A stretch of 64,000 nucleotides of DNA from Cyanobacteria bacterium P01_A01_bin.123 (GTDB lineage: Bacteria; Cyanobacteriota; Cyanobacteriia; Phormidesmidales; Phormidesmidaceae): positions 186,010-250,009 of the forward strand of contig JBCBZT010000003.1 in assembly GCA_039815185.1 (NCBI GenBank), in the 5' to 3' direction. Made by a program: the position numbers and the translations under genes. This document shows positions 15,461 to 64,000 of this stretch, in pieces. The stretch's first letter is position 1, and each line of letters opens with the position of its first letter. The notes beneath the pieces were generated by a model that saw only the letters and a program-made list of their open reading frames with translations, ran no database searches and had not been told where the DNA came from.

Positions 15461-18130
15461 TTAGTCAACAGCGGTGACGAAACGCACTAAACCGAGTTCG
15501 TCGACACCCACTGTCCCCACATCGACAAAGGCCGCCCCTAAAGTGCCAGCATTCCCACTAGGGCAAGCGCCATTGGCGGTTAGTGCCGCTAGAAATGCAC
15601 CTTCATCACCATCCGATGCATTGGTCTGGTTAACAGCTGCACCTAAAGCCGCCGCAGGGCTGGCATAAGCAACCCCTTGTCCAGCGGCAAACCCATCGGT
15701 CACAAACGAGGAATTGGCAGGCACCGGGTCACAAATGGAAACATCAGTAAACGCAGCGGCGGTACGATTAATGAAGTAGATTGTGTACTCGACCTGGTCT
15801 CCACTGGTGAGTTCATTCAGGGGTGCGGTAGGTGTTGTCACCCCCACAAAGGCATTATCCGGTGGGCTACCTGTAGGGGCAGCAAAGTTTGTTGTTACCC
15901 CACCGCGTACAATCCGCGTGATTCGCTTGATCAGCTCTAGACCAAAGGTGATGGGGGTAGGGGTGTCGTTGTTGGGGCTGGTTGGGTCTTCGTTGGCATT
16001 GTCAACCACATTGCCACCATCGTTAGAGTTATCGGTTAATGGAATGCCTGTATTGCCAATTTCACCTCCCCCCACTGCAATATTTTCATAGTTCAGTAAG
16101 TTGCCTGGGGTAACCCGAATGGTGAATTGAACTGTGATAAATGAACGAGTAACACTCCCGGTTGTTAAAATTGCTGGGCCTAGGGTTGCAGCACCCAGTA
16201 AATTAGTATCTCCGGTACCATCAAAGCCAGCATTCGCGACGGCGGTCGTTTGTGTCAATCCCGATGCAGCAGTAGGGCCACTTGTAGCCGTCACTGTTGG
16301 GGCAACTTGAACATTAAAGGCCGTTGCTCCAGCAAAGGTTGTGGCTACATTATCGGTCAGCGTCACATTGGTGAGGGCAATCGTGCTGAGATTTTCAATG
16401 GTGACTTCAAAGAGAACATCAAATTGAGTGGCCCCCACTGGTGTGATTGAAATAACTTGTTTGGCGACCCCCAGCCCAGCGGTAGTCGTTATAAGGCCGC
16501 TGAGCTCCGAGGTTGACAGCGTCGCTGGGTTTGTTGCGGTTGATGTGACAACATCCCCCAAAGTTAAGGCTCCTGGTCTCGTATTGGTGAAGGTAAAGCG
16601 ATTGGTTGTGTCTTCGCCTTGAGCAGATTGATAGGCGGGCGGAATCCCGGGGCCGTAGCTACCTGTACCTGCTGTGACATCGTTGCCGCCGCCTTCAGTT
16701 TCTGTTAGCAAGAAAGTTTCTGCTTCACCGAAGTTGTTGGGATCAGGTGTCGTAACGGTAAACAGCTCAATAATTGCGCCAGGGCGGGCAAAGCCCGTGA
16801 GAATGAGTTGGCTATTGTCATTTGTGATGATAGCTGCCTCATAGACGGGGAAATTAAAGCGTTCGTTAGGGTCACCGTCAGCATCACCATTGTCGTTTAG
16901 GGTGATGCCGTCGCCGGTATTGCCACCATTCAAATCGATAGCCAACCTACCCGCTGCATTGACCGTGGCCCCTGTCGCTGCGTTACGGCCATTTTCAAAA
17001 ATGCTGTTTTGGGTAATGCGATTACCAGTGCCCTGGCTCACAACGATGCCGTCGTTGACGTTTGCCGTAATCGTGTTGTTAGAAATCAAATTATTATTGC
17101 CGTTGCGGATACCAATACCCGCGTCTTGATCCGCTCCTGGCCCCAAGCCATTGGCTCGAATTGTGTTACCAGAAATCGTATTGTTATCGTTGGCAAAAGT
17201 ACGGAGGTCAATGCCGTAAGCCGCATTGCACTCAATCAGGTTATTGGTAATCGTGATATTGTTAGCCGCTACTAACTCAATGCCATCTGCTAGTTGATCG
17301 GCAGCGCCCCCCCTATTGGTGCCGTTTGCACCACACATAAAGCTTGCCATTGTATTAGTCGGCACACCACCCGCGTTGACGCGAACTATATTGTTGTCAA
17401 TCGTGACGCCAGACGCCCCAAAACGGACACTAATACCGCCGTTATCATTGTTTTGAACGATACTGTTGCGAACGACAGAGCCTGCAACGCTTTGGTTGCC
17501 GAAATTAGCCTGAGCAGGTGTAGGACTGTTGTCAGTGGTGCCATTGAAGAAAATCCCAGAACCGTTTCTATCAGCGCCGATACTGTCTTGAACAATTAAG
17601 GTATCGAGGGTTGTATTTGGTGCTTCTACCCGGATAATGGCACCACTGCCAACCCCGCCGCCTTGCCCCACGCTTTCAATCGTCAAATTTTGAATGGTGG
17701 AACCAGCCGCTGTTGCTGCGATCAGAAAACCAGGGCCACCATTGCCTTGATAGTCGATGATGGTGGTCGTCTGGCTGCCACCGACAATCGTCATCGGCGT
17801 GCTGATGGTGGGGAGTGGGGTTCCCCCCACGTTAATCGTGGTTGCGGCAGGGATATTGATTGTATCTAGGCCAGCATCACCGGCGATACATTCATTGACT
17901 GCTGTATCGGTGTTGGCTGCTTGCATTGCTTCTCGTAGCGTACATTGACCATCAGCAGCAACGGTATCTCCAGCCCCTGTCACAGTAATCGTTGCTGCTA
18001 GAGAAGGCGTGGCACAACCCAAAATGCTTACTAGCGCAGTGCTGAAAAGCAACCCAGTTTTTATGGCTAGGGGTGACCAACAGGATTGAAACGTTGAGGT
18101 CATATCATTGAGTGATCGCAGAGGTTTCAC
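15461..18130 (-). CDS. Secreted CSLREA / right-handed beta-helix surface protein with DUF11 domains (paralog 2)
   Basis: Signal peptide (..TPSLA|AT), DGQCTLREAMQAAN (CSLREA-type), Asn/Gly beta-helix repeats, AIDL..DG.TLND..D.D..PN..FNFP motif, two DUF11-like domains; GTG start inferred by alignment with the paralog. Confidence 0.85.
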   Translation of the reverse strand: MKPLRSLNDMTSTFQSCWSPLAIKTGLLFSTALVSILGCATPSLAATITVTGAGDTVAADGQCTLREAMQAANTDTAVNECIAGDAGLDTINIPAATTINVGGTPLPTISTPMTIVGGSQTTTIIDYQGNGGPGFLIAATAAGSTIQNLTIESVGQGGGVGSGAIIRVEAPNTTLDTLIVQDSIGADRNGSGIFFNGTTDNSPTPAQANFGNQSVAGSVVRNSIVQNNDNGGISVRFGASGVTIDNNIVRVNAGGVPTNTMASFMCGANGTNRGGAADQLADGIELVAANNITITNNLIECNAAYGIDLRTFANDNNTISGNTIRANGLGPGADQDAGIGIRNGNNNLISNNTITANVNDGIVVSQGTGNRITQNSIFENGRNAATGATVNAAGRLAIDLNGGNTGDGITLNDNGDADGDPNERFNFPVYEAAIITNDNSQLILTGFARPGAIIELFTVTTPDPNNFGEAETFLLTETEGGGNDVTAGTGSYGPGIPPAYQSAQGEDTTNRFTFTNTRPGALTLGDVVTSTATNPATLSTSELSGLITTTAGLGVAKQVISITPVGATQFDVLFEVTIENLSTIALTNVTLTDNVATTFAGATAFNVQVAPTVTATSGPTAASGLTQTTAVANAGFDGTGDTNLLGAATLGPAILTTGSVTRSFITVQFTIRVTPGNLLNYENIAVGGGEIGNTGIPLTDNSNDGGNVVDNANEDPTSPNNDTPTPITFGLELIKRITRIVRGGVTTNFAAPTGSPPDNAFVGVTTPTAPLNELTSGDQVEYTIYFINRTAAAFTDVSICDPVPANSSFVTDGFAAGQGVAYASPAAALGAAVNQTNASDGDEGAFLAALTANGACPSGNAGTLGAAFVDVGTVGVDELGLVRFVTAVD

Positions 18131-18275
18131 ATCACACCGAAACAAGGTACAGGTTACTCCAGTTAGAAAACGGTTACTTAACTGCAAGCATGATACCAAG
18201 GTTACGGACTGCTCCAGAGATGATTCTCCTACGGCGATCGCAGGCCAAATCTATTGCAGACCGAACATGATCAGC

Positions 18276-20936
18276 TTAATCAACCGTGGTAACAAACCGC
18301 ACAAAACCCCGTTCATCGACGTCTACCGTACCGACATCGACGAATGCAGCCCCTAAAGCCCCGGCATTGCTGTTAGGACAAGCCCCATTAGCCACTAGGG
18401 CCGCCAGAAACTCACCAGCATCAGCATCAGCGGCATTGCTTTGATTGATGCCTGCCCCCAAAGCTGCCGCCGGAACCGCATAGGAAATGCCCTCACCTTC
18501 GGCAAACCCATTCGGCGCAAAGGAGCTATTCTCAGGCACTGGATCACAAATGGAAACATCAGTAATAGCAGCGCCTGTGCGGTTGATGAAATAGATTGTG
18601 TACTCTACCTGATTACCACTGACGAGCGAGTCTAAGGGGGCAGGCGGCGTTTCTACCCCAACAAAACTATCGTCAGGGGGATTGCCCGTCACCGTGGTGA
18701 AGTTTGTCTCTATGCCATCTTGAACCACCCGTGTAATCCGTTTGATCAACTCTAGTCCAAAGGTAATGGGGGTAGGGGTGTTGTTATTAGGACTGGTTGG
18801 ATCTTCATTCGGATTATCAACGACAGTGCCGCCATCATTAGATTCATCTCTCAACGGAACGTCGGTATCGCCGATATTACCTGTCCCTACGGCAATATTT
18901 TCGTAATTCAGTAAAGTTCCTGGCGTGACTCGAACGACATATTCAACTTCGATAAACGAGGGCGTATCCGATCTTAAAATCCGGGGCCCCAGAGTTGCCC
19001 CAGCTGCGAGCAGATTGACATCACCACCGGGGTTTACGCCGTCAAAGTTTGTATTTTCTGCCGCGGCTGTACCATCTCCGTTTGTGTCTGTGATATCAAT
19101 GGCTGAGGCTGGTGGTGTGGTTAACACTTGGAAGCTGTCCGCACCAGCGAAGGTTGTGGATAGGTCATCCGTGATTTGAACATTGGTTAGGGTAACTGAG
19201 CTCAAGTTCTCAACTCTGAGCCTAAACCTTACATCAAACACACCTGCCGACACTGGGGTCACAGACACAACTTGTTTTGCGACGCCAATCCCAGCGGTGG
19301 TAGTAATCAGACCGCTGAGCTCAGAGGTTGAGAGTGTGACAGGGTTAGTGGCCGTTGACGTCACCACATCACCGATGGCCAAGGCGCCTGGTCTGGTGTT
19401 GGTAGAGGTAAAGCGATTCGTCGTATCTTGTCCTTGAGCGGTTTGGTATCCAGGCGGAATGTCTGGACCATAACTCCCTGTCCCCGGTGTGACATCGTTT
19501 GCACCGCCTTCAGTTTCTGTCAACAAGAAGGTTTGCGCTTCCCCAAAATTGTTGGGGTCAGGGTTAGCAACCGTAAATAGCTCAATAATGGCGCCTGGGC
19601 GGGTAAAGCCAGTAAGAATGAGTTGGCTATTGTCATCGGTGATAATGGCCGCTTCAAAAACCGGGAAGTTGAAGCGTTCGTTGGGGCCACCATCGGCATC
19701 ACCATTGTCATTCAACGTGACGCCATCCCCAGTATCGCCAACGCCTAAATCGATGGCTAACCTATCAGCTGCATTGACAATGCCCCCTGTGGTTGGGTTA
19801 CGACCATTCTCAAAAATGCTGTTTTGGGTAATGCGATTCCCGATACCTTGGCTGACTACGATACCGTCGTTGACGTTTGCAGTAATGGTGTTGGTCGAGA
19901 TCGTATTATCATTACCGTTTCGCACACCAATACCCGCGTCTTGGTCCGTTGACACCCCGAGACCATTGGCTCGAATTGTGTTGTTGGAAATCGTATTATT
20001 ATCGTTGGCAAAAGTCCGAAGATCGATGCCGTAGCTGGCGTTACACTCAATTGTGTTGTTTGTAACTGTGATGTTGTTGGCCCCGACTAGCTCAATACCA
20101 TCCGCCCGTGGATCGGCGCTGCCCCCCCGATTGGTCCCGTTTACGGCACATCCAAAGGTCCCTATTGTGTTGGTCGGTACGGTGCCTCCGTTGACGCGAA
20201 CCAGGTTGTTGTCAATGGTGACCCCAGACGCACCGAAGCGGACAGTAATCCCCCCGTTGTCGTTGTTTTGAACAATGCTGTTGCGAATGACAGACCCTGA
20301 AACATCTCTGCTTCCAAATGTTGCTGCAGGGGGCGTGGGATCGGTGCTAGTCGTGCCATTGAAAAAGACTCCGGAGCCATTTCTATCGGGGCCAAAGCTG
20401 TCCTGAACAATTAAGGTGTCCAGAGTTGTGTTTGGTGCTTCTACCCGAATAATGGCACCCGAACCGGCAACAGCGTCTGGGCCAACGCTTTGAATCGTTA
20501 GATTTTGAACGGTGGAGTTTGCTGCTGTGATTAGTAAGCCAGGCCCCCCATTGCCGTTGTAGTCGATGATGGTGGTGTCGCGACTGCCCCCATTAATGGT
20601 CATCTGCGTACTGATGGTGGGTAGGGGTGTGCCGCCTACATTAATCGTGGTTGCGGCGGGGATATTGATGGTGTCAAATCCGTCACCAGCCGTACACTCA
20701 TTCACGGCTGCATCAGTATTGGCTGCCTGAATGGCTTCTCGCAGCGTGCAAATACCATCAGCGGCAACGGTGTCTCCAGCCCCTGTCACATTAATGGTTG
20801 CCGCGAAGGCAGGTGCAGCGTGTCCCAAAACGCCCAATAGCGCAGTGCCAAAAACTAAACCAGTTCGGTTAGCTAAGGGTAACGAGCAGGATTGAACCGT
20901 TGAGACGATATCGTTGAGCGATTTCAGGGATTTCAT
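18276..20936 (-). CDS. Secreted CSLREA / right-handed beta-helix surface protein with DUF11 domains (paralog 1)
   Basis: Signal peptide (..APAFA|AT), DGICTLREAIQAAN; collinear and highly similar to 15461-18130 over its whole length. Confidence 0.85.
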   Translation of the reverse strand: MKSLKSLNDIVSTVQSCSLPLANRTGLVFGTALLGVLGHAAPAFAATINVTGAGDTVAADGICTLREAIQAANTDAAVNECTAGDGFDTINIPAATTINVGGTPLPTISTQMTINGGSRDTTIIDYNGNGGPGLLITAANSTVQNLTIQSVGPDAVAGSGAIIRVEAPNTTLDTLIVQDSFGPDRNGSGVFFNGTTSTDPTPPAATFGSRDVSGSVIRNSIVQNNDNGGITVRFGASGVTIDNNLVRVNGGTVPTNTIGTFGCAVNGTNRGGSADPRADGIELVGANNITVTNNTIECNASYGIDLRTFANDNNTISNNTIRANGLGVSTDQDAGIGVRNGNDNTISTNTITANVNDGIVVSQGIGNRITQNSIFENGRNPTTGGIVNAADRLAIDLGVGDTGDGVTLNDNGDADGGPNERFNFPVFEAAIITDDNSQLILTGFTRPGAIIELFTVANPDPNNFGEAQTFLLTETEGGANDVTPGTGSYGPDIPPGYQTAQGQDTTNRFTSTNTRPGALAIGDVVTSTATNPVTLSTSELSGLITTTAGIGVAKQVVSVTPVSAGVFDVRFRLRVENLSSVTLTNVQITDDLSTTFAGADSFQVLTTPPASAIDITDTNGDGTAAAENTNFDGVNPGGDVNLLAAGATLGPRILRSDTPSFIEVEYVVRVTPGTLLNYENIAVGTGNIGDTDVPLRDESNDGGTVVDNPNEDPTSPNNNTPTPITFGLELIKRITRVVQDGIETNFTTVTGNPPDDSFVGVETPPAPLDSLVSGNQVEYTIYFINRTGAAITDVSICDPVPENSSFAPNGFAEGEGISYAVPAAALGAGINQSNAADADAGEFLAALVANGACPNSNAGALGAAFVDVGTVDVDERGFVRFVTTVD

Positions 20937-20960
20937 AGCACGCTGAGACACAAGACAGAG

Positions 20961-23033
20961 TTATTCCAGTTGCAGATCGGTTTCTTGACGTTCAAAGATA
21001 ATGTCGAGGCCACGGGTGTCTTCAAAGATGACTTCCACGCGGCGATCGCGGGCGTAATCGAGCCGAGTGCTGCCAGTGGTTGCCCGTTGGCTTTCGCCGA
21101 AGGGCCGAATCCGCATTCGTTCAGGTTCAATGCCCTGCTGCAGTAGATAGTTACGGGCAGACAGAGCCCGGCGCTCACTCAAGGCTTGGTTGTACGCATC
21201 GCTGGCACGGGGATCGGTGTGGCCTTGCAGTTCGATCACAATAAAGGGATATTCCAACAGAACCGCTGCAATCTGATCGAGCACATTGGCACTCTCTGGG
21301 CTGATGTTGGAGCGATCGAGGGCGAAGTGAATATTGCGCGGCACTTGCAGTTGCAATGGCTCCGGGGGGGGCGCTTCCGAGGGCGGTTCCGGGGGGGGAT
21401 CAGCTGCAAAGCAGCTGGGAGGCGAGATTGGTTCGAGCGCCAAGTCAGGAATCGGTTCGCCCATAACCCGAACGGTTGTCACCGGGGCGGGTTCGGAGGT
21501 GCCATATTGGGGATCAGTGGCGATCGCACTGAGGCGAGTCCCTGCCGGTACGGACAATGTGGTCGCAAACTGGCCAGCATCATCGGCAGTAACCGTCGCG
21601 AGGAATTTTGCCAGGGGACTGTAAACCCTCTGATCTTCCACCACCTGGTAGATGTCTACCTCTGATCCTGGATCCGCAGTGCCTTGTAAGGTAACTTCAC
21701 CCTGTTCTAAGGGAAATTCATAGGCCATAAATTGGGGGGCATTGATTGCCCCATTGCCCGTGTCCGTGCGGCGGTTGTGAGAATTGCGCGGTGGATTGGG
21801 ACCATCGGCCTCTTGATAAGCCCTGACCTCGCTAGCGTCAGCCGCATTCAAGTCAATGCTGAGTCCATCGAGCTGCAAAAACTGATTGTTGCGGATAATG
21901 TTGCGATCGCTGCGGGGAAAAGCCGTTACCGTCACCCCAGGTCCAGGCTGATAGCCGATCAGATTATTCAAAACCTGATGGTCATTGCCCATGAGGTAAA
22001 CGGCTGCCCGTTCGAATCGTCGCCCGTTGAACTTGATCGAATTGTCTTGAATCAGAACTGCGCCTTCGGGTTTGAACAGATAAATGCCGCTACCGTCGTT
22101 GCCACACAGCAGGTTATTCTCCAGAACCGCATCGGTCACGATTCCTTCTAACCGAATTGCATCGGGCATCCCGGCTATGCCATTGCCAATAATGGTATTG
22201 CCAGTCACCATTAACTCCTCAGCCCGCACCCCCGTGATAATGGCGCTACCATCGTGGTGCCGAATCTGGTTTTGACGGATGGTAACCCCAGTGGCATTAA
22301 AGACGGATACTCCAAAGGTTGAAGTCTCCTCGGGAAAGCGATTTTCTGGCGGTAATCCCAGCCAATTTTGTTCAATCACCACATCTTTCGTTGCGGCCTC
22401 AGACGTGCCGAAATCAAAAAAGCTGAGCGGGGGCGACAATGGGCTAGCGTCCGCTGGGTGTGGAGCATTACTAATGAAGATGTCGCTGGGGGGAGTGGTT
22501 TGTGTCGATCGCGGCGCTGCTCGAAACCCATAGATACTCAATCCGCGCACGGTTACCCCATCACCAATGATGGTCAGCCCACGAAAGACTTCCTGTCCAG
22601 CTGCTGGGGTCAACGCCACTACAGGTACGGGTACGGGCACTTGGGCCTGGGGTGGTTCAGCATTGCCGTATCCCGGCTGAGTTGTGCCGTCAATTAGGGT
22701 ATTGGGCGTTTCAATTGCGGGCAGTAAGGTTTCAACTGCAATCGTGGTTTGAGCTAAGGGTAGATTGAACTGGATCTGCGGTGCTCCAGTCGGGGAAGGG
22801 GCAATCAGGGCTTGCTCCGCTGGGCTCAGCGCCGCCGGCGTTAGAGTCCCATTAGCCAGCTCAATCGCTTCTCGTAGGGTGAGGATCCCATCGGCAGTTA
22901 CTGGGCCATCTAGATCACTGTTGACCGTCACGATATACGGTTCAAAAGTTTGCTCGTTAGGGGTTTGGGCGATCGCTGGGAGAGCGAGTAAATAAATAAA
23001 AGGTGCTGACAGTATCGATATCTGACGAATCAT
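20961..23033 (-). CDS. Beta-helix protein with C-terminal OmpA-like peptidoglycan-binding domain
   Basis: Signal peptide, LTLREAIELANG, beta-helix repeats, Pro-rich linker, IHFALDRS..GHTD..YNQALSERRA..DRRVE OmpA signature. Confidence 0.9.
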   Translation of the reverse strand: MIRQISILSAPFIYLLALPAIAQTPNEQTFEPYIVTVNSDLDGPVTADGILTLREAIELANGTLTPAALSPAEQALIAPSPTGAPQIQFNLPLAQTTIAVETLLPAIETPNTLIDGTTQPGYGNAEPPQAQVPVPVPVVALTPAAGQEVFRGLTIIGDGVTVRGLSIYGFRAAPRSTQTTPPSDIFISNAPHPADASPLSPPLSFFDFGTSEAATKDVVIEQNWLGLPPENRFPEETSTFGVSVFNATGVTIRQNQIRHHDGSAIITGVRAEELMVTGNTIIGNGIAGMPDAIRLEGIVTDAVLENNLLCGNDGSGIYLFKPEGAVLIQDNSIKFNGRRFERAAVYLMGNDHQVLNNLIGYQPGPGVTVTAFPRSDRNIIRNNQFLQLDGLSIDLNAADASEVRAYQEADGPNPPRNSHNRRTDTGNGAINAPQFMAYEFPLEQGEVTLQGTADPGSEVDIYQVVEDQRVYSPLAKFLATVTADDAGQFATTLSVPAGTRLSAIATDPQYGTSEPAPVTTVRVMGEPIPDLALEPISPPSCFAADPPPEPPSEAPPPEPLQLQVPRNIHFALDRSNISPESANVLDQIAAVLLEYPFIVIELQGHTDPRASDAYNQALSERRALSARNYLLQQGIEPERMRIRPFGESQRATTGSTRLDYARDRRVEVIFEDTRGLDIIFERQETDLQLE

Positions 23034-26000
23034 TAGACCTCACCCCCTGTTTCGATGTCGTTTGGTGCCGCGTTAGCAGGTTGATCGGGTTCAACATAGG
23101 AGTCTTGCTGCTGCTGCGGTGACACCATCTGCAATCCAAATCCATTCAATAGTTCATTTACCTTGAAGGTGACGCCCAAATAAACCCCGCTACCCGAGCG
23201 ATACGCGTTGTCACCTACAAAGCTGCCTTCATTTGCGCCGCCAAAGCTGTAACCTACCCCTAATCGCAGATCAGGCGTCAAGTAATATCCCGCTTCTAGG
23301 GCAAATCCAGTTTCGCTATAGCCAACGGTGGGTTGACCAATCCAGCGGGCTCCTGCTGTGACATCCCAACGGTAGGCAAAGCGATAGGTTGCCCGCATTT
23401 GGGCAAAATGAATGGAATTGGAAAATCCAAAGTCGTCAGCTAGATTGACATTGCTGTAACGCAAGGCATACTTGCCATAAAGTTCCCACTGCCAGCTGGG
23501 GGATAAGATGCCCTCTAATGCCAACGTATGATCTACGGCGTCGTTGCTGGAGCCAATCAGAATGCTATCGGGTGTGGTGCTGGGATTATTGCGATACTCG
23601 TAGCTCAATAATCCGTTGAAAATATCGCTGCTTGGATCGCGGTAGGCCAGCCCCAACCTGAGATTAATCGAATTACCAAGGTTGCCCGTGATGGTCTGGT
23701 TTGCAAAGTTAGCCTGCTCGTAGCGAAACAGGGTCGTCAACGACCGGGTAATGCGGCCCCCAGCGGCAGCCGTAAACACGGTGTTGTCGCCACTATCAGA
23801 ATCTCGATGTTCAAATCGTGCACTGGCCTGAAAATCTGGGTTGTCTGTATACTCCAAGCCAATACTATAAGCGGTGCTGGACTGGAGTCCCAACGCAGAA
23901 GCGTTTTGACCCACAGCAAAGGGTTGGGCAAACTGCTCTCCCCCCCCGGTTAGGTTGAACGCGTCGCCAAAGATGCGTTCTAGGCCAAAGTTCGCTCGCA
24001 ACCCAGGTGCTAACACCATGCGGTGATTCAACCCAATGGCTCCCTGCCCCGTGATGCCGTTAAATCCTCCCAACAGGGAATACCGATTTGTCAACGTTGT
24101 GTTGTCGTCTAAGGCGTAATCGATCAGGCTATCCAGGCGAGTGACTGAGCCTGGGTTAGCCCCGCCGGTAAACTGTTGTGCCAGCCGCAGGGTCATACCG
24201 GGTTGTACGGCCCATTCTAGGCCTACGGTTTGGCGATCGGGATAAAGTGAATCGCCGGTGCCCAGGTTTAACTCACTCTGGGCCAAAAAACTCAAATCTC
24301 CTGTGATTGGCAGATTCAGCCGAGAGACTACTTGATTAGAGTCAGTATTGAGATTGGTGATGCGATCATCGCGACCGCGAAAGATCCAATCAACGCCTAG
24401 GGTAGTGGCACCGAACCGTTGCTGAATGCCAATCTGGCCTGTGGTTAAGGTGTTATCGACTGAACTCCCCTGAATGGCCTGTTGCCCGGGCGATAGCAAG
24501 GCTCCGGCAGAGGTCAATACTGCTGGGGATGAGCCAACGTTTGTTTCTTGGTCGATTAAACCTCGAAGCAGGGTGCTGGGGCCAATGCGAGCCGCGATCT
24601 CGGCTCCCCAGCGCGTTTGTCCGGGACGAAAGCTAGAGGTGTAGTCGTTTTGAAACTCAGGTGCGGCAGATTGCAGATAGGCGCGACCAAATACATTAGG
24701 CAGAACGTTGCCATTAAAGGCCAATCGAAAGGCATTTCCTGAAGTCGTGGCCCCCCCGCTAAACGAATCTGATCGGGCCCATTCCCCAACGAACGTCCCA
24801 ATGCTGCCAATCGGCAACTGGAGATCAACGCCGTATAGATTGGAGTCAAAATCTCCCTGGTCTGCGTGGAGAAACGTAGCCCCAACCCAGCTATTGAGAT
24901 CGGGGGTGAAGGCATACTGCAATCGCCCTGCATACAATTCACCGCCAAATTCACCGCCGTCTAGTTGGTAGGTGACAACAATCCGACGCACCAGCGTCTC
25001 GCCGAAGGGATCGATCTCTGTGGCATAAATCGGTTGACGAAATAGCAGCGTGCCTCGGTCATAATCAATGTCATAGTCAGCTCCCCGATAAAGCTCTGTA
25101 CGCTCAACTACCGTCCCGGGGCGATTAATCTCCTCAGTCTCGATAAAAACATTTTCACTCCCGCGCAGCACTGCCCGCCGAGATAAGAAATAAAAGCCAC
25201 TGGTGCCGTCGGGTGCAATCGTATCGCGCTGCAACTGCTGTAAGTTGTTGCCGTACATGGCCGTGACTTGCAACCCATTGGCAAAACTATAGTTGCCCTT
25301 AAAGCCGTGGAGTTGCAGTGTAGTCGCGGTAAAGGTTTGAGAAGACCGAGCAAATTCTGGAGTGCTGTAATCGCCCCACATCAGGTAGTCAGGTTCAGCC
25401 CCTGGCAAGATAGAGTCTCTCTGGAGGCGCAAATAAAGACTGTCGGCAGACGGGGTCAAAAATTCTGAGGTCGAGCTGTCGCCATAAACCGGATAGGTTT
25501 GGTCACAAGCTTGGAGATCATTGAGGATACCGTTATCCCCTCCACAACGCTCGTTTAAGTTTCGCTCGCTCGTGTATGCTCCGGTAATTTGCCAATCTCC
25601 CAGGGTGCCAATGCCAAACAGGGAAATATCAGGGTCAAACTCCGTTCCGTTGTCAAGTAGATCCGGATTGAGAAAGTCTCCAAAGCTCCCCCAAAAATCA
25701 GTTCCGGCTTGCCCCAACCGCAAATGCACCACACCCGAAACTAGAGATGGCCTCAAATCCGTGACAAATTGAACCTCGGTGTAGGCTGCGACCTCTGGAT
25801 AAGGGTCGGGATCGATCGCTGGATCAAGTCCGCGCACTTGATGGCCATTAACGGCTGCCCGAATCTGAACGGTCTGAGCGTCTAGATCAGAACGCAGCAG
25901 CGTCTCAAACTCCCCACGACGGGCCAGAATTTGAAATCCTGCGAGATCGTTGTCATAGTCTGTCTGGACAAATACTCCAGCACTACTGGTTAGCGTGACA

Positions 26001-26782
26001 ATGATATCTCGATCAAGTACGACGCCATCGACATCGAGCACTTGTCCGCTCAGTCTGACCACGGCTCGTCCATTGGCTGGAATAATGCCGTTACCAATGG
26101 GCTCAATTTGGAGTGTTGGCCCTTGATTTTCCTCCAGCAAGTCCTCTTCTGACAGACGCTCTAAGGGATCTTCGGGAGCATCGGGGCGTAAGGCAGGGGG
26201 CGGCACAAATTCGTCCATGGGGGTACCCCCATCTCCATCAAACTGAGCCATCAGTTCAGCTTGATGGGGGGATATTGGAGCGGCTTGAAAATCAAGGGTT
26301 GACGCTTCTAGGACGCCGGAAAAAGCTAGGTTATTTCCCTCAAGCGCCAATGTTTCAGAGTCAGTTGAGTGCGATCGCGCCGGGGAAACATGAGCATCTG
26401 AGTTGCTGACTGGGTCATTAACTGGATCGTTAACGAGGGTATTTGCCTCAATTAAGTCTCCAGTCTGTAAGACAGCGGCGTCAGTGGCCAAGCCGTCAGC
26501 TGTTTCCCTTATTCTGGGGAGATTAAGTGCAGGTGAAACATGGGTCGTCGATCCAACATTCTCATCGGCTGACGGGCTCGCCTCAGGGGAAACTGATTGG
26601 GGTTGCAGGTCCTGATTGACCATTGGCTGCTGATCATCGCTTGGCAGCGGCGCAGCGTCATCAACCGCCACGGACAGGTTCGATGCAGCCGCTTCCCCAT
26701 ATGCAGGAAATGCTGCACTTAAAACTCCAGCGATAACGGCCAGTGCCTTAATTGCCAGTAAAGTTTGCTGTGAGCTTGCCAT
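23033..26782 (-). CDS. Large outer-membrane beta-barrel protein (putative usher/translocon; often auto-labelled TonB-dependent receptor)
   Basis: Signal peptide after M at 26782, acidic disordered N-terminus, Ig-like IPANG domain, YPVYGDSS and DYDIDYDRGTLLF motifs, long run of amphipathic beta strands ending GVYLGVTFK. Confidence 0.8.
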   Translation of the reverse strand: MASSQQTLLAIKALAVIAGVLSAAFPAYGEAAASNLSVAVDDAAPLPSDDQQPMVNQDLQPQSVSPEASPSADENVGSTTHVSPALNLPRIRETADGLATDAAVLQTGDLIEANTLVNDPVNDPVSNSDAHVSPARSHSTDSETLALEGNNLAFSGVLEASTLDFQAAPISPHQAELMAQFDGDGGTPMDEFVPPPALRPDAPEDPLERLSEEDLLEENQGPTLQIEPIGNGIIPANGRAVVRLSGQVLDVDGVVLDRDIIVTLTSSAGVFVQTDYDNDLAGFQILARRGEFETLLRSDLDAQTVQIRAAVNGHQVRGLDPAIDPDPYPEVAAYTEVQFVTDLRPSLVSGVVHLRLGQAGTDFWGSFGDFLNPDLLDNGTEFDPDISLFGIGTLGDWQITGAYTSERNLNERCGGDNGILNDLQACDQTYPVYGDSSTSEFLTPSADSLYLRLQRDSILPGAEPDYLMWGDYSTPEFARSSQTFTATTLQLHGFKGNYSFANGLQVTAMYGNNLQQLQRDTIAPDGTSGFYFLSRRAVLRGSENVFIETEEINRPGTVVERTELYRGADYDIDYDRGTLLFRQPIYATEIDPFGETLVRRIVVTYQLDGGEFGGELYAGRLQYAFTPDLNSWVGATFLHADQGDFDSNLYGVDLQLPIGSIGTFVGEWARSDSFSGGATTSGNAFRLAFNGNVLPNVFGRAYLQSAAPEFQNDYTSSFRPGQTRWGAEIAARIGPSTLLRGLIDQETNVGSSPAVLTSAGALLSPGQQAIQGSSVDNTLTTGQIGIQQRFGATTLGVDWIFRGRDDRITNLNTDSNQVVSRLNLPITGDLSFLAQSELNLGTGDSLYPDRQTVGLEWAVQPGMTLRLAQQFTGGANPGSVTRLDSLIDYALDDNTTLTNRYSLLGGFNGITGQGAIGLNHRMVLAPGLRANFGLERIFGDAFNLTGGGEQFAQPFAVGQNASALGLQSSTAYSIGLEYTDNPDFQASARFEHRDSDSGDNTVFTAAAGGRITRSLTTLFRYEQANFANQTITGNLGNSINLRLGLAYRDPSSDIFNGLLSYEYRNNPSTTPDSILIGSSNDAVDHTLALEGILSPSWQWELYGKYALRYSNVNLADDFGFSNSIHFAQMRATYRFAYRWDVTAGARWIGQPTVGYSETGFALEAGYYLTPDLRLGVGYSFGGANEGSFVGDNAYRSGSGVYLGVTFKVNELLNGFGLQMVSPQQQQDSYVEPDQPANAAPNDIETGGEV

Positions 26783-26837
26783 AGTGCGTCTGTTTCTTAA
26801 CTTCCCTGATTGTTTGGTCGATACTTCCCTGCGAACA

Positions 26838-27869
26838 CTATTGACCTGGCCCAACAACCTGGCCCTCACCAAAGGTAGGGGTCACTCCAAAGTTCATACG
26901 TACCAATCCACCTGGCTCAAGCTGAACCAGGCGCGACTGGCTGTTTTGGTCAAGACGATACAAGTTAGGCGCTAGGGTATAACCCGGCAAGCTGGTTAAA
27001 TCCAACGTGCCGACTCGATACCCGCGATAGACATTTGCTACGGAAAATAAGCCCTCGGGGTCGGTAATGATGCGATTGCCATCATCCATAAAGACAACAG
27101 CATTGGGGACTCCTTCTTCTCCAGGTTGCTGTTCACCATCGAAATTTTTATCAACAAAGACCCGTCCGACAACCGTGCCACAATCGGCAACGATCCCCGG
27201 ACGAATCAGCAGTTGAAACTGAGAAGTAACGGTTGCAAATCCCGGAGCGGAGGCCTGGGCAGTGTTCTCCCCTGACCCCCGAACTGAATCAGGAGTGAGC
27301 AATACAGCATAGACAATATTGATCGATTCACCCGCGGCCAAGGTTGGAAACTCAAGGGTAATCTGACTGTTATCGAAGCTTACTGAAGTCGGTGCGGTAG
27401 GCGTTGCCTGGACTGAATCAGGCACATACAGCAGACCTAGGGGTAACTGATCAACAATGGTCAGCGGTGTAGCCGCAGTAGTCGTGCTGTTGTTGGTTAC
27501 CAGCAGTCTGTACAGCACCACATCCCCAGGCTCTGCAGCAGCTCGATCTGCGGTCTTAACAATCGATAATCCTTGCTCCTGGGCAGCTGTCCCCGATACC
27601 TGATAAGAGGTGGTGTTTGAGGTGCCAGTTTGCACATTACCACCAGAGGTGAATTGAGCCGATGCTTGGTTAGTCACCGTTACCTGTGCCTGGGAGGCAG
27701 TCGGCAAAATCAGCCCACCATGAAGTGCAAGGCTGGTAAACAAAGCCAACAAAAAAATCATCCAGCGTCTAAGAAGACGCCTACCTGTAGCGAATATCGG
27801 TTTCAACACCCACAACTCCCACACACTCGGTAGATAACGTAATATCACCGAAAAATCAGATAAAGTCAA
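26838..27869 (-). CDS. Exported DUF11 + SdrD-B-like domain protein, first gene of the operon
   Basis: Signal peptide (..TASQA|Q), LSIVKTADRAAAEPGDVVLYRLLVTN DUF11 motif, GRVFVDKNFDGEQQPGEEGVPNA SdrD-B-like motif; true start probably near 27809. Confidence 0.85.
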   Translation of the reverse strand: MTLSDFSVILRYLPSVWELWVLKPIFATGRRLLRRWMIFLLALFTSLALHGGLILPTASQAQVTVTNQASAQFTSGGNVQTGTSNTTSYQVSGTAAQEQGLSIVKTADRAAAEPGDVVLYRLLVTNNSTTTAATPLTIVDQLPLGLLYVPDSVQATPTAPTSVSFDNSQITLEFPTLAAGESINIVYAVLLTPDSVRGSGENTAQASAPGFATVTSQFQLLIRPGIVADCGTVVGRVFVDKNFDGEQQPGEEGVPNAVVFMDDGNRIITDPEGLFSVANVYRGYRVGTLDLTSLPGYTLAPNLYRLDQNSQSRLVQLEPGGLVRMNFGVTPTFGEGQVVGPGQ

Positions 27870-28387
27870 GTATCAAAAAAACAGAAATGTACGTAATTAC
27901 GCATAATTACGCATTCTCACGCGATGATACTCTGCTGAAATTCACCTAGGTACTTTATCAGAAGATGGCGTGGATGATTGCCGTCACTACTCAGAAAGGA
28001 AAGATTAGCCAAATTGCAACACGCCTAAGAGCAGTGTGCTTGTCGTCACAGCGCAAGATTCTGATAGCCTTATAAGGGGTCTTACCCCCCCTATAGAGGG
28101 GCTGTTACAGGACTAATGCAGGAACGTCTACTGTCAGATAGAGGCGAAATGGCATCAGTGCTTATACTTGATTAAGAATTGTTGAAAGTTCCTCAAAAAA
28201 CGTACTTTTACGGAAGGTATTCAACTCGTTTTGGCGATTTGCACCTACTTATGTCAGGAAAACCTGACATAAGTAGGTGCTTCTACTTGTTCCCTATCCA
28301 CATTCACCGCAGGCGTTTTCTCCAGGCTAAAACTCAAATTTTCAAATCGGATTACGGTTAGCTTCAATGATGAGTGACCGTTAAGCT

Positions 28388-29182
28388 TCAGCGAATTGCA
28401 GATTTGAGCGCCTGACAGAAGTCTGCGATTTTCTCCAATCCCTCCGCTGGGGGATGGTCGGCTAGGCGGTTGACAAAGGCGCTGCCCACGATGACTGCAT
28501 CAGCGCCCCATTGCTTAAGCTGTGCAGCTTGTTGAGGTTGGGAAACACCGAACCCGACTCCCACGGGTTTATGGGTTAGTCCCCGCAAATCCTCTAGTAG
28601 CCTGTTGACTCGGCTTTGAATTTGGGTTCTCATGCCGGTGACGCCGGTGACGCTAACGAGATAAATGAACCCTTCGGACTGTTGCGCGATCGCTTCAATT
28701 CTTGCTTTTGGAGAGGTTGGGGCGACCAGTAGCGTCACTTCAATACCCGCTGATAGGGCTGGCTGCCTTAGGGTTTCAACCTCCTCTAAGGGGAGATCGG
28801 GAACCACTAACCCTTTGACGCCAGCCGCCACGAGGGTTTCTAAAAAAGCTTCGATCCCCCGATTCAAAATCGGGTTGTAGTAAGTGAAAAGAATAATCGG
28901 TGCTGTCAATGTTGGGCTGACTTGCTGCACGACTGCTAAAACTTGCTCAAGTTTGACCCCGCGTTTGAGGGCCCGCGTGGCGGCGGCTTGAATAACGGGG
29001 CCATCTGCCAATGGGTCAGAATAAGGAACGCCTAATTCAATCAAGTCGGCCCCGCTTTGATCTAGGATTTGCAGCGCTTTGGCCGTGGTTTCCAAGTCTG
29101 GATCGCCAGCGGTAATGAAGGGAATTAAGGCACACTCCTGGCGATCGCGGAGGATTTGAAACTGCTCAGAAACCGATGTCAT
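28388..29182 (-). CDS. trpA: Tryptophan synthase alpha chain
   Basis: [46 protein letters not shown]. Confidence 0.98.
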
Positions 29183-60988: not shown

Positions 60989-63900
60989 TTATTCTTCGTC
61001 TAGGGCTTCTGGATTACATAGAGTATCAAGCCAATCTGTTCTAGGTTCTGAACCATCTCCTAAATCGAGTACGTAGTAATACGTTCCCACAGGCAACTGC
61101 TGACCTTTCTGTACCGTGGCACGGCCGTTGGAAGTACCATCCCAATCATTGTTATAGGAACGTTGTTCAAATACAATATTTCCCCATCGGTTGAACACCT
61201 TGAGAACATTGTTAGGGTATCTGGAAATACAATCAATGGTAAAGGTCTCGTTAACCCCATCGCCATTTGGCGAAAATTCATTGTATACTGTTAAGCATGA
61301 AGGTTCTACCGCTGCTTGAGCGGTATTGTTGGAATCATTGGTGTCCAGCTGGTCTACAAATGCCAGACTTGCGGTATTGACATAATCATTGATGTCCAGT
61401 ACCTCAGCAGTAATAATTAAGCTAGTGGAGGACAAACCACTTAGGCTTTCAATATCCAAAAAGCCAGAAGCCTCATCGTAACTACCAGAATCAGTTTGTG
61501 AGCTTGTCAATCGATACCCTGAAGGTAGAAGCTCTTCAATACCAATGTTGGTTGCGTCCTGAGACCCTTGGTTAGAAACCGTAATGGTGAAAACCACATC
61601 ATCGCCTATTTGAGGACTTTCATTATCCACCGTTTTGGCAATGGAAATGTCAGTAGTTTGCGGAATCACTTGAGCAGTTGCCTCGTCATCATCTGCTAAA
61701 CCGTCACTTAAATCATCTTGTGACAAACTACTAAGTGGTGAACTATCTGGGTCCGCAAAATCACTTCTAGAAATCTCAGCAACATTTAAGTACTCATCCA
61801 TCGTACCCGTGGGTGCATTTACTGTTGCAAGAATATTCAAGGTCTCGGTACTTCCACTGAACACGGACCCATTTAAAGCCCATAATCCTGTTTGTTCATT
61901 GTAAGCGCCTGCAGTTGCGACATGAGATTGATAAGTGTATCCCGTTGGAAGTAAGTCAATCACTTCAACCCCAGTAGCATCATTAGGTCCTTCATTCCTT
62001 AAATTCAATGAAAACTCAACGATATCTCCCACATTTGGGGTTTGATTGTCCACTATCTTAGTCAGAGATAAATCAGCTAAACCGTTTGGCACTAAGATTA
62101 TCGTATCCTGATCATCTTCAGCATCCAAATTGTTGTTTGGGGAAGAGTCTGGGTCAAAAGTATCTGAAGCAACCAACTCAGCCGTGTTACTGTAAATACC
62201 TGAGGGGAGTACTTCAACGGTTATCTGTAAAGTTTCAGTTGCTCCACTAGCAAGACTGCTCAATGACCAAGCTCCGGTTGCATCATTATAATTCCCAGTA
62301 GAAGCGTTGGCAGATACAAAAAGAAAACCTGAAGCCAAGACATCTTCAACCACCAAATTGGCAGCCTCGTTTGGTCCAGCATTGTTTACTGTTATCGTGA
62401 AAACCACCTGGTCTCCTACCGACGGGGTCAAATCACTTGCAGTTTTTGATATTGATATATCAGCCAATACCCTTGGAGTAACGGACTGCTCATCCTGATC
62501 ATCTTCTGAGAGGATATTGTTCCCAGGTGTAGAATCTGGATCTCTTTCTATGGAAGCAATGACTTCTGCCACATTACTATAATCTCCTGTTGAATTAACT
62601 TGAACGGTAAGGTTCAAAACAGCATTAGCACCACCCAATATGGTTCCTATGTTCCAAAGACCAGTTGCAGAAGAGTATGTGCCCCCAGAATCATCAGCAA
62701 TATACGTGTAGCCGGATGGTAAAACGTCGGAAACAACCACCCCAGTAGCATCACTTAAACCATCATTAGTAACGGTAAGAGTGAATGTTACGTTATCCAG
62801 TACATCAGGAAATTTGTTATCTACACTTTTTTCTAGGGATAAATCAGCAGATGGCAAAGGTGTAGTACCTGCACTATCTTGATCGTTCTCTGTAATAACG
62901 TTATTGTTCGGAGTGGAATTAGGGTCAAAATTGCTTGAAGAAAGCACTTCGGTCACATTAAAATAGTCTCCAGCAGGATTTACCGTAGCCACTATGTTTA
63001 AGGTCTCTGTAGTTCCATTCGGAATCACCCCATTTAATTGCCATATCCCAGTTGTAGGATTATAAACTCCAGCGGTTCTATTGTTTGAAGCGTAGGTATA
63101 TCCTGAAGGTAGTAAATCAAGAACTTGTACCCCAGTTACATCGCTTGGGCCTGTATTCGAAATACTAATGTTGAATATTACTTCATCACCCACAAAAGGA
63201 GAAAGCACATCAACAGATTTCCTGAGAATTAAATCCGAAACTAAAACTGGAACAGGTTCAATGGTCTGCTGATCATCTTCAGTGTCATCATTATTTGCAG
63301 GTTCAGAATCTATATCTTGTTCTGCAACATCGGTTAATTCAGCAATATTCGTATAGTCTCCGGTTGCCAATACATTGGCCGTTATGACAAGTGTTTCTGT
63401 TATTCCATTGGCTAAGTTTCCAAGGGTCCAAGATCCATTCAAAGGTTCGTATACTCCATTGGTTGGTACGGCACTCACAAATGCGTAACCCGATGCCAAG
63501 AAATCAGTAACCACAATATTTGTTGCATCACTAGGTCCATCATTCGTCACCGTAACTGTAAATACTATAGGGTCACCAACATTTGGAGTAAAATCGTCTG
63601 CTGTTTTAGTTACTGAAATATCTACCAATTGTATTGGATTGAGGACAACCTCATCTTGATCATCTTCAGATAAAACTCCATTATTTGGAGTAGAATCTGA
63701 ATCAACCTGATCCTGATCAGTTACTTCCGCAACATTGGTATAAATCCCTGTTGTATTAACTGAAGCGGTAATATTCAATGTGGTCGATGTACCACTGGTC
63801 ACTGTTCCTACATTCCATAGACCCGTACCATTATTATATGTTCCAGCCCCATCATCAGAATCATAGGTGAATCCAGAAGGGAGTATATCGGTAACCTGAA

Positions 63901-64000
63901 CATTTGTGGCATCATTGGGGCCATCATTGGTCACTGTTAAAGTGAAGACCACATTCGTATTCACATCTGGATTTAAATTATCCACGGTTTTCGTAAGTGA
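60989..64000 (-). CDS. Bacteroidetes-type DUF11-repeat protein with T9SS type B (gliding-motility-associated) C-terminal domain; 5'-partial, with an aberrant last 12 aa
   Basis: Seven visible DUF11 repeats (D(L/I)SxxKxVD..P.VGD.V.FTxTVxN.GP..AT...D.LPSG); C-terminal VYNEFSPNGDGVNETF...VFNRWGNIVF...YNNDWDG...LPVGTYYYVL; frame open to the window edge. Confidence 0.9.
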   Translation of the reverse strand, partial: SLTKTVDNLNPDVNTNVVFTLTVTNDGPNDATNVQVTDILPSGFTYDSDDGAGTYNNGTGLWNVGTVTSGTSTTLNITASVNTTGIYTNVAEVTDQDQVDSDSTPNNGVLSEDDQDEVVLNPIQLVDISVTKTADDFTPNVGDPIVFTVTVTNDGPSDATNIVVTDFLASGYAFVSAVPTNGVYEPLNGSWTLGNLANGITETLVITANVLATGDYTNIAELTDVAEQDIDSEPANNDDTEDDQQTIEPVPVLVSDLILRKSVDVLSPFVGDEVIFNISISNTGPSDVTGVQVLDLLPSGYTYASNNRTAGVYNPTTGIWQLNGVIPNGTTETLNIVATVNPAGDYFNVTEVLSSSNFDPNSTPNNNVITENDQDSAGTTPLPSADLSLEKSVDNKFPDVLDNVTFTLTVTNDGLSDATGVVVSDVLPSGYTYIADDSGGTYSSATGLWNIGTILGGANAVLNLTVQVNSTGDYSNVAEVIASIERDPDSTPGNNILSEDDQDEQSVTPRVLADISISKTASDLTPSVGDQVVFTITVNNAGPNEAANLVVEDVLASGFLFVSANASTGNYNDATGAWSLSSLASGATETLQITVEVLPSGIYSNTAELVASDTFDPDSSPNNNLDAEDDQDTIILVPNGLADLSLTKIVDNQTPNVGDIVEFSLNLRNEGPNDATGVEVIDLLPTGYTYQSHVATAGAYNEQTGLWALNGSVFSGSTETLNILATVNAPTGTMDEYLNVAEISRSDFADPDSSPLSSLSQDDLSDGLADDDEATAQVIPQTTDISIAKTVDNESPQIGDDVVFTITVSNQGSQDATNIGIEELLPSGYRLTSSQTDSGSYDEASGFLDIESLSGLSSTSLIITAEVLDINDYVNTASLAFVDQLDTNDSNNTAQAAVEPSCLTVYNEFSPNGDGVNETFTIDCISRYPNNVLKVFNRWGNIVFEQRSYNNDWDGTSNGRATVQKGQQLPVGTYYYVLDLGDGSEPRTDWLDTLCNPEALDEE

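Follow-up and report, generated by a model that had tools for sequence, protein, structure and literature searches.

The window, by which we mean the whole 64,000-nucleotide stretch analysed, carries five co-oriented ORFs in the order adaptor, barrel, beta-helix/OmpA-like protein, passenger 1 and passenger 2. This short-adaptor operon includes no pilin, no long adaptor and no accessory protein of the small truncated kind described below. The genes and the features recognised within them are as follows.

26838..27809 (-): short adaptor gene, 323 aa from GTG, overlapping the barrel ORF (from sequence)
27687..27809 (-): predicted Sec signal peptide of the adaptor, with the start placed at GTG 27809 (GGAG upstream, basic n-region) and the database call at ATG 27761 (from sequence and conservation of the Ala-Gln junction)
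27597..27686 (-): predicted donor hairpin at the N-terminus of the mature adaptor, made up of the final two strands of a CnaA/CLIPPER-type domain without the rest of that domain (from sequence, profiles and complex model)
27669..27671 (-): Asn31 (in TNQA; numbering from ATG 27761), the predicted isopeptide-forming Asn (81/81; aligned with Asn166 of the adaptor's own domain)
27615..27617 (-): Asn49 (SN motif, opening the second hairpin strand), probably structural (81/81)
27201..27572 (-): the adaptor's own complete DUF11/CLIPPER domain, with Lys69, Asp104 and Asn166 (from Pfam, alignment and structure match)
26859..27200 (-): conserved SdrD-B-like C-terminal domain of the adaptor, probably the barrel-binding part (weak PF17210 match below the cut-off)
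23033..26872 (-): 1279-aa ORF for a large predicted outer-membrane beta-barrel protein, first ATG at 26782 (from sequence pattern and relatives)
20961..23033 (-): accessory protein with beta-helix, Ig and OmpA-like peptidoglycan-binding parts (from family matches)
18276..20951 (-): passenger 1, 891 aa, whose CSLREA and beta-helix head is followed by a complete stalk domain (Lys559, Asp595, Asn685) and, last, by an acceptor domain that is truncated
18279..18767 (-): acceptor domain of passenger 1, with Lys737 at 18741-18743 and Asp803 at 18543-18545, ending before the Asn strand
15461..18199 (-): passenger 2, 912 aa, first ATG at 18103, arranged in tandem with its paralogue passenger 1, to which it is 75% identical
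15464..15952 (-): acceptor domain of passenger 2, with Lys758 at 15926-15928 and Asp824 at 15728-15730 (from sequence and profile)

To judge from its sequence, the adaptor probably starts at GTG 27809 rather than at ATG 27761. At the predicted cleavage site, which was read from sequence and conservation, Ala is found in 110/120 and the next residue, Gln, in 115/120 of the best 120 of 2005 homologues. The RR-rich leader raised the possibility of a Tat signal, which we rejected, as homologous leaders inspected by eye lack the Tat consensus. The SdrD-B-like C-terminal domain is the most conserved part of the adaptor and is fused to the barrel in two loci (L091 and L101). Relatives are cyanobacterial.

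The window barrel matched no Pfam or NCBIfam family, and a sequence-profile search of solved structures returned just one designed barrel (E 0.018). DUF2490 was found in 13/18 of its relatives, and its look-alikes in the Atlas are named outer membrane protein. At the sequence level, the FimD/PapC usher was detected neither by Pfam or NCBIfam in the window barrel and 18 aligned barrels nor in the solved-structure profile search, and type V secretion families (autotransporter, Omp85/TpsB barrel, TPS domain) matched neither the barrel nor the passengers. The ORF is predicted to encode an outer-membrane barrel of no named secretion family. We take All3289 of Anabaena PCC 7120 to be a possible counterpart of this barrel. 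All3289 is described as a 1289-aa protein with a possible outer-membrane anchor (PMC9705863).

The gene for the OmpA-like protein is missing in loci L060, L065, L085 and L089. A homologous CSLREA/beta-helix region is common to this protein and the passengers (25% over 471 aligned columns, E 3e-7), and the passenger heads may therefore derive from the family of the accessory gene. Upstream of the adaptor, trpA is present both in the window (28388-29182, minus strand) and in the relative G315 (L104:2323-3174), and the position of the operon is thus conserved in the family. We also noted a terminator-like inverted repeat of 18 pairs (28241-28280) between trpA and the adaptor gene; in a promoter/terminator scan of the locus, sites were no more numerous than in shuffles.

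A CnaA triad divided between two genes

Translation of 27597-27686 (minus strand) gives QVTVTNQASAQFTSGGNVQTGTSNTTSYQV, which is preceded by a hydrophobic leader (...LILPTASQA) and followed by a DUF11 domain (PF01345, E 4.9e-10). Translation and domain match confirm the original prediction of a hairpin of ~30 aa between a cleavage site separating TASQA from Q and the first DUF11 domain. With a hairpin profile built without the window sequence, the segment was the top match among the genome's 39,789 ORFs (E 6.7e-5), followed by the pilin of a sister system (E 0.0016) and a third match at E 0.63. A motif pattern written from the adaptors matched 15 of 50,883 40-residue windows of the genome. By these searches the hairpin is no chance likeness. 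Searched against the rest of the adaptor, the hairpin profile found its best, weak match (E 0.025, probability 2%) in the last two strands of the adaptor's own domain, Asn on Asn.

Conservation of the Asn in homologues, which the original prediction presupposed, was borne out for both residues: Asn31 and Asn49 are each invariant in the 81 aligned adaptors (80 genome loci and the window), and each is kept in 115/120 of the best 120 of 2005 protein homologues. An S-N motif of the Asn49 type is also present in the last strand of complete domains. Since Asn49 is equally invariant without a catalytic role, Asn invariance by itself is no proof of bond chemistry. The bond-forming residue should be the first Asn (Asn31, in TNQA on the penultimate strand) and not the Asn of the SN motif.

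The adaptor's own domain has Lys69, Asp104 and Asn166 in 81/81 aligned adaptors. Its model aligns end-to-end with the CLIPPER crystal structure 9IFR (Z 15.2, rmsd 2.3, 120/123 residues aligned). In another alignment, Asn166 falls within one residue of Asn806 of 9IFR. Given its Lys, Asp and Asn and the full-length 9IFR match, this domain is complete and leaves no gap for the hairpin; this speaks against the hairpin packing onto its own adaptor, although the monomer model gives no contacts and bears on self-packing only indirectly. All three triad residues lie in one chain in this domain, as they do in the passenger stalk domain.

For the passenger side, the sample comprised 62 ORFs from 81 loci, each 400 aa or longer and lying downstream of a barrel or OmpA gene. 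Left out were 16 ORFs running off the locus and 4 not acceptor-ended, namely two unrelated genes, one piece from a broken-barrel locus and L057, a downstream gene that stops mid-domain. In the aligned acceptors (42 ORFs from the loci and the window's two), Lys and Asp are kept in 44/44, and all 44 end 7-9 residues from a conserved Arg column. Together with the donor Asn (81/81), Lys, Asp and Asn are thus found at the CnaA triad positions across the pair; they are not found within one chain, the Asn strand being encoded by another gene. Median pairwise identity in the hairpin and acceptor sets that hold these invariant residues is 33% and 39%. The acceptor profile matches the adaptor's own domain (probability 93%, E 2.6e-7), and the stalk domain preceding the acceptor in each passenger is complete, with an N-x-A strand.

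The point of truncation was also seen in structure alignments. The model of the passenger-1 acceptor aligns with residues 187-307 of RrgB 2X9Z (Z 7.1, rmsd 3.3, 109 aligned) and so stops short of the isopeptide Asn of that domain, given as Asn318 (PMC12617251). On shared targets (8beg, 7wrk, 4u4j, 3fcs and 1ayo), the acceptor ends 30-35 residues before the adaptor's complete domain. As the Z-scores of the acceptor model are below 8, possibly reflecting a common arrangement, only the end points of these alignments were used. 9IFR was absent from the best 50 matches of the acceptor model, and the acceptor gave no match up to E 10 when solved structures were searched by sequence profile. Collectively, the 44 aligned acceptors and the alignment end points uphold the claim that the passenger C-termini lack their last two strands. 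The companion claim, that the TNxA and SN strands are patterned as the final two strands of a DUF11-type domain, finds support in an unsplit homologue (see below) that carries both inside a complete domain.

A complex model of the hairpin with the passenger-1 acceptor scored 0.70, compared with 0.02 for the best of three controls. The mark for such scores was reached by 116/157 solved complexes and 2/215 mismatched pairs, figures that apply approximately, our own alignments having been used. Runs agreed in at least 87% of contacts, with a partner pLDDT of at least 72. In the model, the strand bearing Asp803 pairs with hairpin residues 33-37, Lys737 contacts hairpin residues Ala33, Ser48 and Thr51, Asp803 also contacts Ala33, two residues from Asn31, and Asn31 itself lies in the interface. 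The modelling proposed with the original prediction, run here with passenger 1, thus docks the hairpin in the acceptor. As the hairpin and the acceptor together make up one divided domain, their resemblance to solved CnaA domains may account for the pass; the model shows a fit of the hairpin with the acceptor, not binding in the cell. Model and sequence agree on donor-strand complementation of an incomplete Ig fold, with two strands rather than one, and it is through these alignments and models that the complementary truncation and the division of the triad over two genes are shown.

Proposed mechanism, relatives and rival readings

We propose that a naturally split CnaA/CLIPPER domain, whose donor half is supplied by the hairpin, serves docking, covalent locking and barrel-anchored display, and give this reading as a whole a probability of about two in three. 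After Sec export, the hairpin would insert into the last domain of a passenger and complete its fold. The completed Lys-Asp-Asn triad would then form a spontaneous intermolecular isopeptide bond from passenger Lys737 or Lys758 to adaptor Asn31, with loss of NH3. The C-terminal domain of the adaptor would hold the neighbouring outer-membrane barrel, so that one passenger would be fixed per adaptor on the cell surface, and the product would be the equivalent of a one-chain adhesin found unsplit in some alphaproteobacteria. In the pilin-less form, any protein with a matching terminal acceptor domain, encoded in the operon or elsewhere in the genome, could be the displayed head. Docking of the passengers on the adaptor hairpin is very probable. 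Given docking, analogy with CLIPPER and BsaA makes a spontaneous Lys-Asn bond quite likely, and the covalent bond taken by itself is, by the same analogy, probable. Gene order and fusions give moderate confidence that the adaptor is anchored on the barrel and that display is at the surface.

The same docking could occur without a covalent bond, with completion as in chaperone-usher pili, either stable or for export only, and with Lys, Asp and Asn kept for structure. All of the complementation evidence would fit this equally well, and the 25 best-confidence contacts listed for the complex model do not include Lys737-Asn31. Some DUF11 domains are described as lacking the isopeptide bond (PMC12617251), and an Asn mutant of Clostridium BsaA is reported still to have given oligomers that survived SDS until heated (bioRxiv 2024.11.04.621531). 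Against a non-covalent pair, Lys, Asp and Asn are all invariant across proteins of about 35-40% median identity, and in two cyanobacterial pilin operons the small accessory protein carries Gln in place of the Asp, which indicates that the fold does not need the Asp. The burial of unpaired Lys and Asp would also be energetically costly. We therefore consider docking without a bond unlikely and retain the covalent lock as the preferred reading.

A second, pilin-bearing system is encoded in the same genome on contig C49 (C49:45232-61505; L081:1233-17506). It resembles the window operon in the C-terminal domains of its adaptor, in its barrel and OmpA-like protein, and in a passenger that ends in an acceptor (here a 1668-codon ORF). 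Three components are absent from the window operon: a DUF7925 pilin that has both donor and acceptor, a longer adaptor and an accessory protein that is small and truncated. The DUF7925 protein has a donor hairpin at its start and a truncated last domain and is, by sequence, a candidate self-polymerising pilin. The small accessory protein (L081:3905-4591, L090:3255-3845) is a truncated acceptor that keeps its Lys and has Gln at the catalytic Asp position; its counterpart in L092 keeps an Asp, and among the loci opened it was seen only in pilin-bearing ones. It may cap donor hairpins reversibly.

Pilin subunits from C49 might insert between the window's adaptor and its passengers, making the hairpin the base of a shared fibre. 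The genome does encode a pilin of the right build, whose hairpin is the E 0.0016 match to the short-adaptor profile, the C49 passenger matches the acceptor profile (E 1.4e-19), and 8/15 short-adaptor genomes also carry the pilin family. However, DUF7925 and a long adaptor are both absent in 7/15, including a single-contig genome; the adaptor was the sole donor found in the five tested; and the divergent acceptor of the pilin is not matched by the passenger-acceptor profile in this genome. A shared fibre is accordingly improbable in our estimate, compared with direct capture of passengers by the adaptor.

These numbers come from 301 sampled genomes of the phylum, counts in which kin are not independent: the adaptor profile matched in 45/301, DUF7925 in 33/301, all 33 having a long adaptor, and a short adaptor like the window's was found in 15/301. 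Because DUF7925 can miss a pilin (G299), five of the seven genomes without DUF7925 and long adaptor were searched with the donor profile; each gave one donor match at E<0.1, always the adaptor, next to 1, 1, 2, 3 and 3 full acceptors. Two of the acceptor genes in these five genomes (L094, L097) lie away from any adaptor or barrel gene within the fetched region. Across the 80 short-adaptor loci, of which 62 extend at least 4.5 kb upstream, this profile, built from 40 of these loci, found no donor in any other same-strand ORF. The divergent hairpin on this genome's long adaptor escapes the profile, and further donors could therefore go unseen.

Among 31 relatives screened for counter-examples, 18 had both parts and 10 neither. 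Acceptors were present without an adaptor in G319, where a transposase-like ORF adjoins a shortened barrel ORF, and an adaptor without an acceptor in G315, where the passenger runs off the contig; the remaining candidate, G314, is a genome 69% complete. The rearranged G319 locus (L102:8054-19998) has the shortened barrel ORF fused to an OmpA-like domain, and an 825-aa protein there bears a donor hairpin and apparently ends in a hydrophobic segment and basic tail, a sequence that suggests another kind of anchor.

System members were also found on plasmids of Deinococcus, Thermus and proteobacteria. On an alphaproteobacterial plasmid (Nitratireductor), the adaptor profile runs continuously over positions 3-273 into the end of a 1859-aa repeat protein, in which the hairpin position is occupied by the last two strands of a complete Lys/Asp/Asn domain; the adjoining gene is homologous to the barrel (E 8e-18). 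An Acinetobacter plasmid encodes one 2008-aa chain comprising an N-terminal hairpin-like stretch, the adaptor domains and the barrel; the hairpin-like stretch was read by eye and received no score from the donor profile. In G115 (L091), adaptor and barrel are fused, with no donor-profile match and no passenger nearby. A related cluster lies on plasmid MP1 of the model organism Deinococcus radiodurans (L099:8016-16225), where the adaptor appears split and the donor hairpin is on a 101-aa ORF.

The one-chain homologue bears on a further alternative, in which the pairing is real and the adaptor acts as a periplasmic or barrel-lumen sorting or hand-over factor, with the passengers released or held otherwise. 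Consistent with such a role, neither a lipobox nor a membrane segment could be read from the adaptor sequence, and the operon carries the peptidoglycan-binding OmpA-like protein. Head, stalk and adaptor domains are nevertheless one chain in the unsplit protein, implying a permanent link, and the heads are lectin-like, beta-helix or repeat stalks of the sort usual in surface adhesins, leaving a transient role for the adaptor very improbable next to permanent display. A last alternative, that the hairpin is merely left over or folds back on its own adaptor, the passenger C-termini being a shorter fold or a barrel-recognition signal, is extremely improbable: the hairpin is fairly confident in the adaptor monomer model (pLDDT 76-87) and the passenger last strand is conserved and amphipathic, but the adaptor's own domain is complete, the linker after the hairpin is of low confidence, and complex model, matching truncation and unsplit homologue all favour pairing.

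The adhesin heads had been described as interchangeable. Variety in the heads is seen across genomes and not within the window, whose two passengers are 75% identical paralogues. The heads and stalks of 29 scanned passengers included five that were lectin-like (below the family cut-off), four with DUF6923, seven with SdrD-B repeats and four with no match.

Relation to known systems

Donor insertion with isopeptide chemistry is already known from BsaA and archaeal threads, as far as these are described in the two reports cited here. In Clostridium perfringens BsaA (bioRxiv 2024.11.04.621531), an N-terminal Asn-bearing donor enters the following protein, where a Lys-Asn bond forms spontaneously between the two molecules, much as proposed for the window pair. 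BsaA is described as TasA-like, with an Asn-Glu-Lys triad, and as a monoderm homopolymer without a barrel, whereas the window pair has a CnaA fold with Asp, a two-strand donor and two different proteins in a diderm. The operon proteins showed no TasA or SipW match, their domains being DUF11/CnaA with Asp. The archaeal thread filament Saci_0406 (PMC9715654) likewise combines donor-strand complementation with an apparent intermolecular isopeptide bond, but this bond is presented as non-canonical, from an N-terminal amine to an Asn two subunits away, within an archaeal homopolymer.

In CnaA domains the bond links the first and penultimate strands, and CLIPPER is reported to form an isopeptide bond in a Gram-negative protein (PMC12617251). 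CLIPPER/DUF11 (PF01345; 9IFR; PMC12617251) shares with the window pair a CnaA fold with Lys on the first strand, an Asp and an Asn on the penultimate strand. Its bond is described within one chain, whereas in the window the domain is cut before the Asn strand and divided between two genes. As described in that paper, CLIPPER bonds are intramolecular, and its main text has 0 occurrences of 'donor', 'split' or 'truncated'.

Chaperone-usher pili (Fim, Pap; PMC13721041) are described as having an incomplete Ig-like last domain completed by an N-terminal donor, an acceptor-only tip adhesin and a base subunit at an outer-membrane barrel, all of which recall the window. They differ in using one strand, non-covalently, with a PapD-type chaperone and a 24-stranded usher; this locus has no polymerising subunit, and no PapD/FimC chaperone match was found among the five operon proteins. 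By sequence-level family tests the system belongs neither with chaperone-usher pili nor with BsaA, and its working would resemble that of the two ends of a chaperone-usher pilus, tip and base, locked in the manner of BsaA. Two other systems proved to be different ones: in the text of the Tat-fimbriae report (PMC11821415) the DUF11 matches listed are to DUF1102 and 'isopeptide' occurs 0 times, and the Litorilinea DUF11 hook (bioRxiv 2025.08.19.671072) is described as one long chain.

SpyTag/SpyCatcher has the CnaB fold, and SnoopTag uses a Lys-Asn pair. The likeness to SpyTag/SpyCatcher drawn by the original prediction stands insofar as both are split isopeptide domains, a peptide tag and a catcher; it does not extend to fold or residues, since SpyTag/SpyCatcher is described as engineered from Gram-positive adhesins with a Lys-Asp pair for SpyTag, and the window pair would be natural, CnaA-type, with a Lys-Asn-Asp triad and a 30-residue N-terminal tag.

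Among the papers listed by a literature search with few subscription journals, often the best 20-40 of more matches, none described a split DUF11/CLIPPER pair, this operon, or a naturally split CnaA domain that couples two different proteins at a barrel of its own. We lean slightly towards regarding the system as an undescribed diderm display system built on a naturally split CnaA domain. Its minimal form would be one barrel-bound adaptor whose single 30-residue tag covalently captures several adhesins, some encoded elsewhere, with no enzyme and no pilin; the pilus and one-chain forms would be the same machine with subunits added or fused. New in this locus is the minimal form, with one donor, no pilin and several possible heads, and this is the simplest case, a 30-residue peptide and a 163-residue domain. 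If the reading is correct, it would amount to sortase-free covalent surface display in two-membrane bacteria and to a swappable adhesin repertoire for cyanobacteria, relevant to mats, biofilms and host attachment. A pair that cross-links would also be a natural tag and catcher with a fold unlike that of SpyTag and many sequence-diverse natural variants.

By the family tests run, the system is not of the type V, type IX or sortase kind: the operon has no sortase, and the passengers have no T9SS C-terminal domain or LPxTG signal and end in a beta-strand of the acceptor domain. Elsewhere in the window (60989-63985, minus strand), a 998-aa ORF running to the contig end combines seven DUF11 repeats with a CHU_C domain (E 3.6e-28), which is a type IX secretion signal of Bacteroidota type on a cyanobacterial contig; this signal domain seems cut short at its end. 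GC drops to 0.41 in the last 2 kb, and the assembly lists 5.99% contamination. The ORF is possibly a chimeric join or an insertion.
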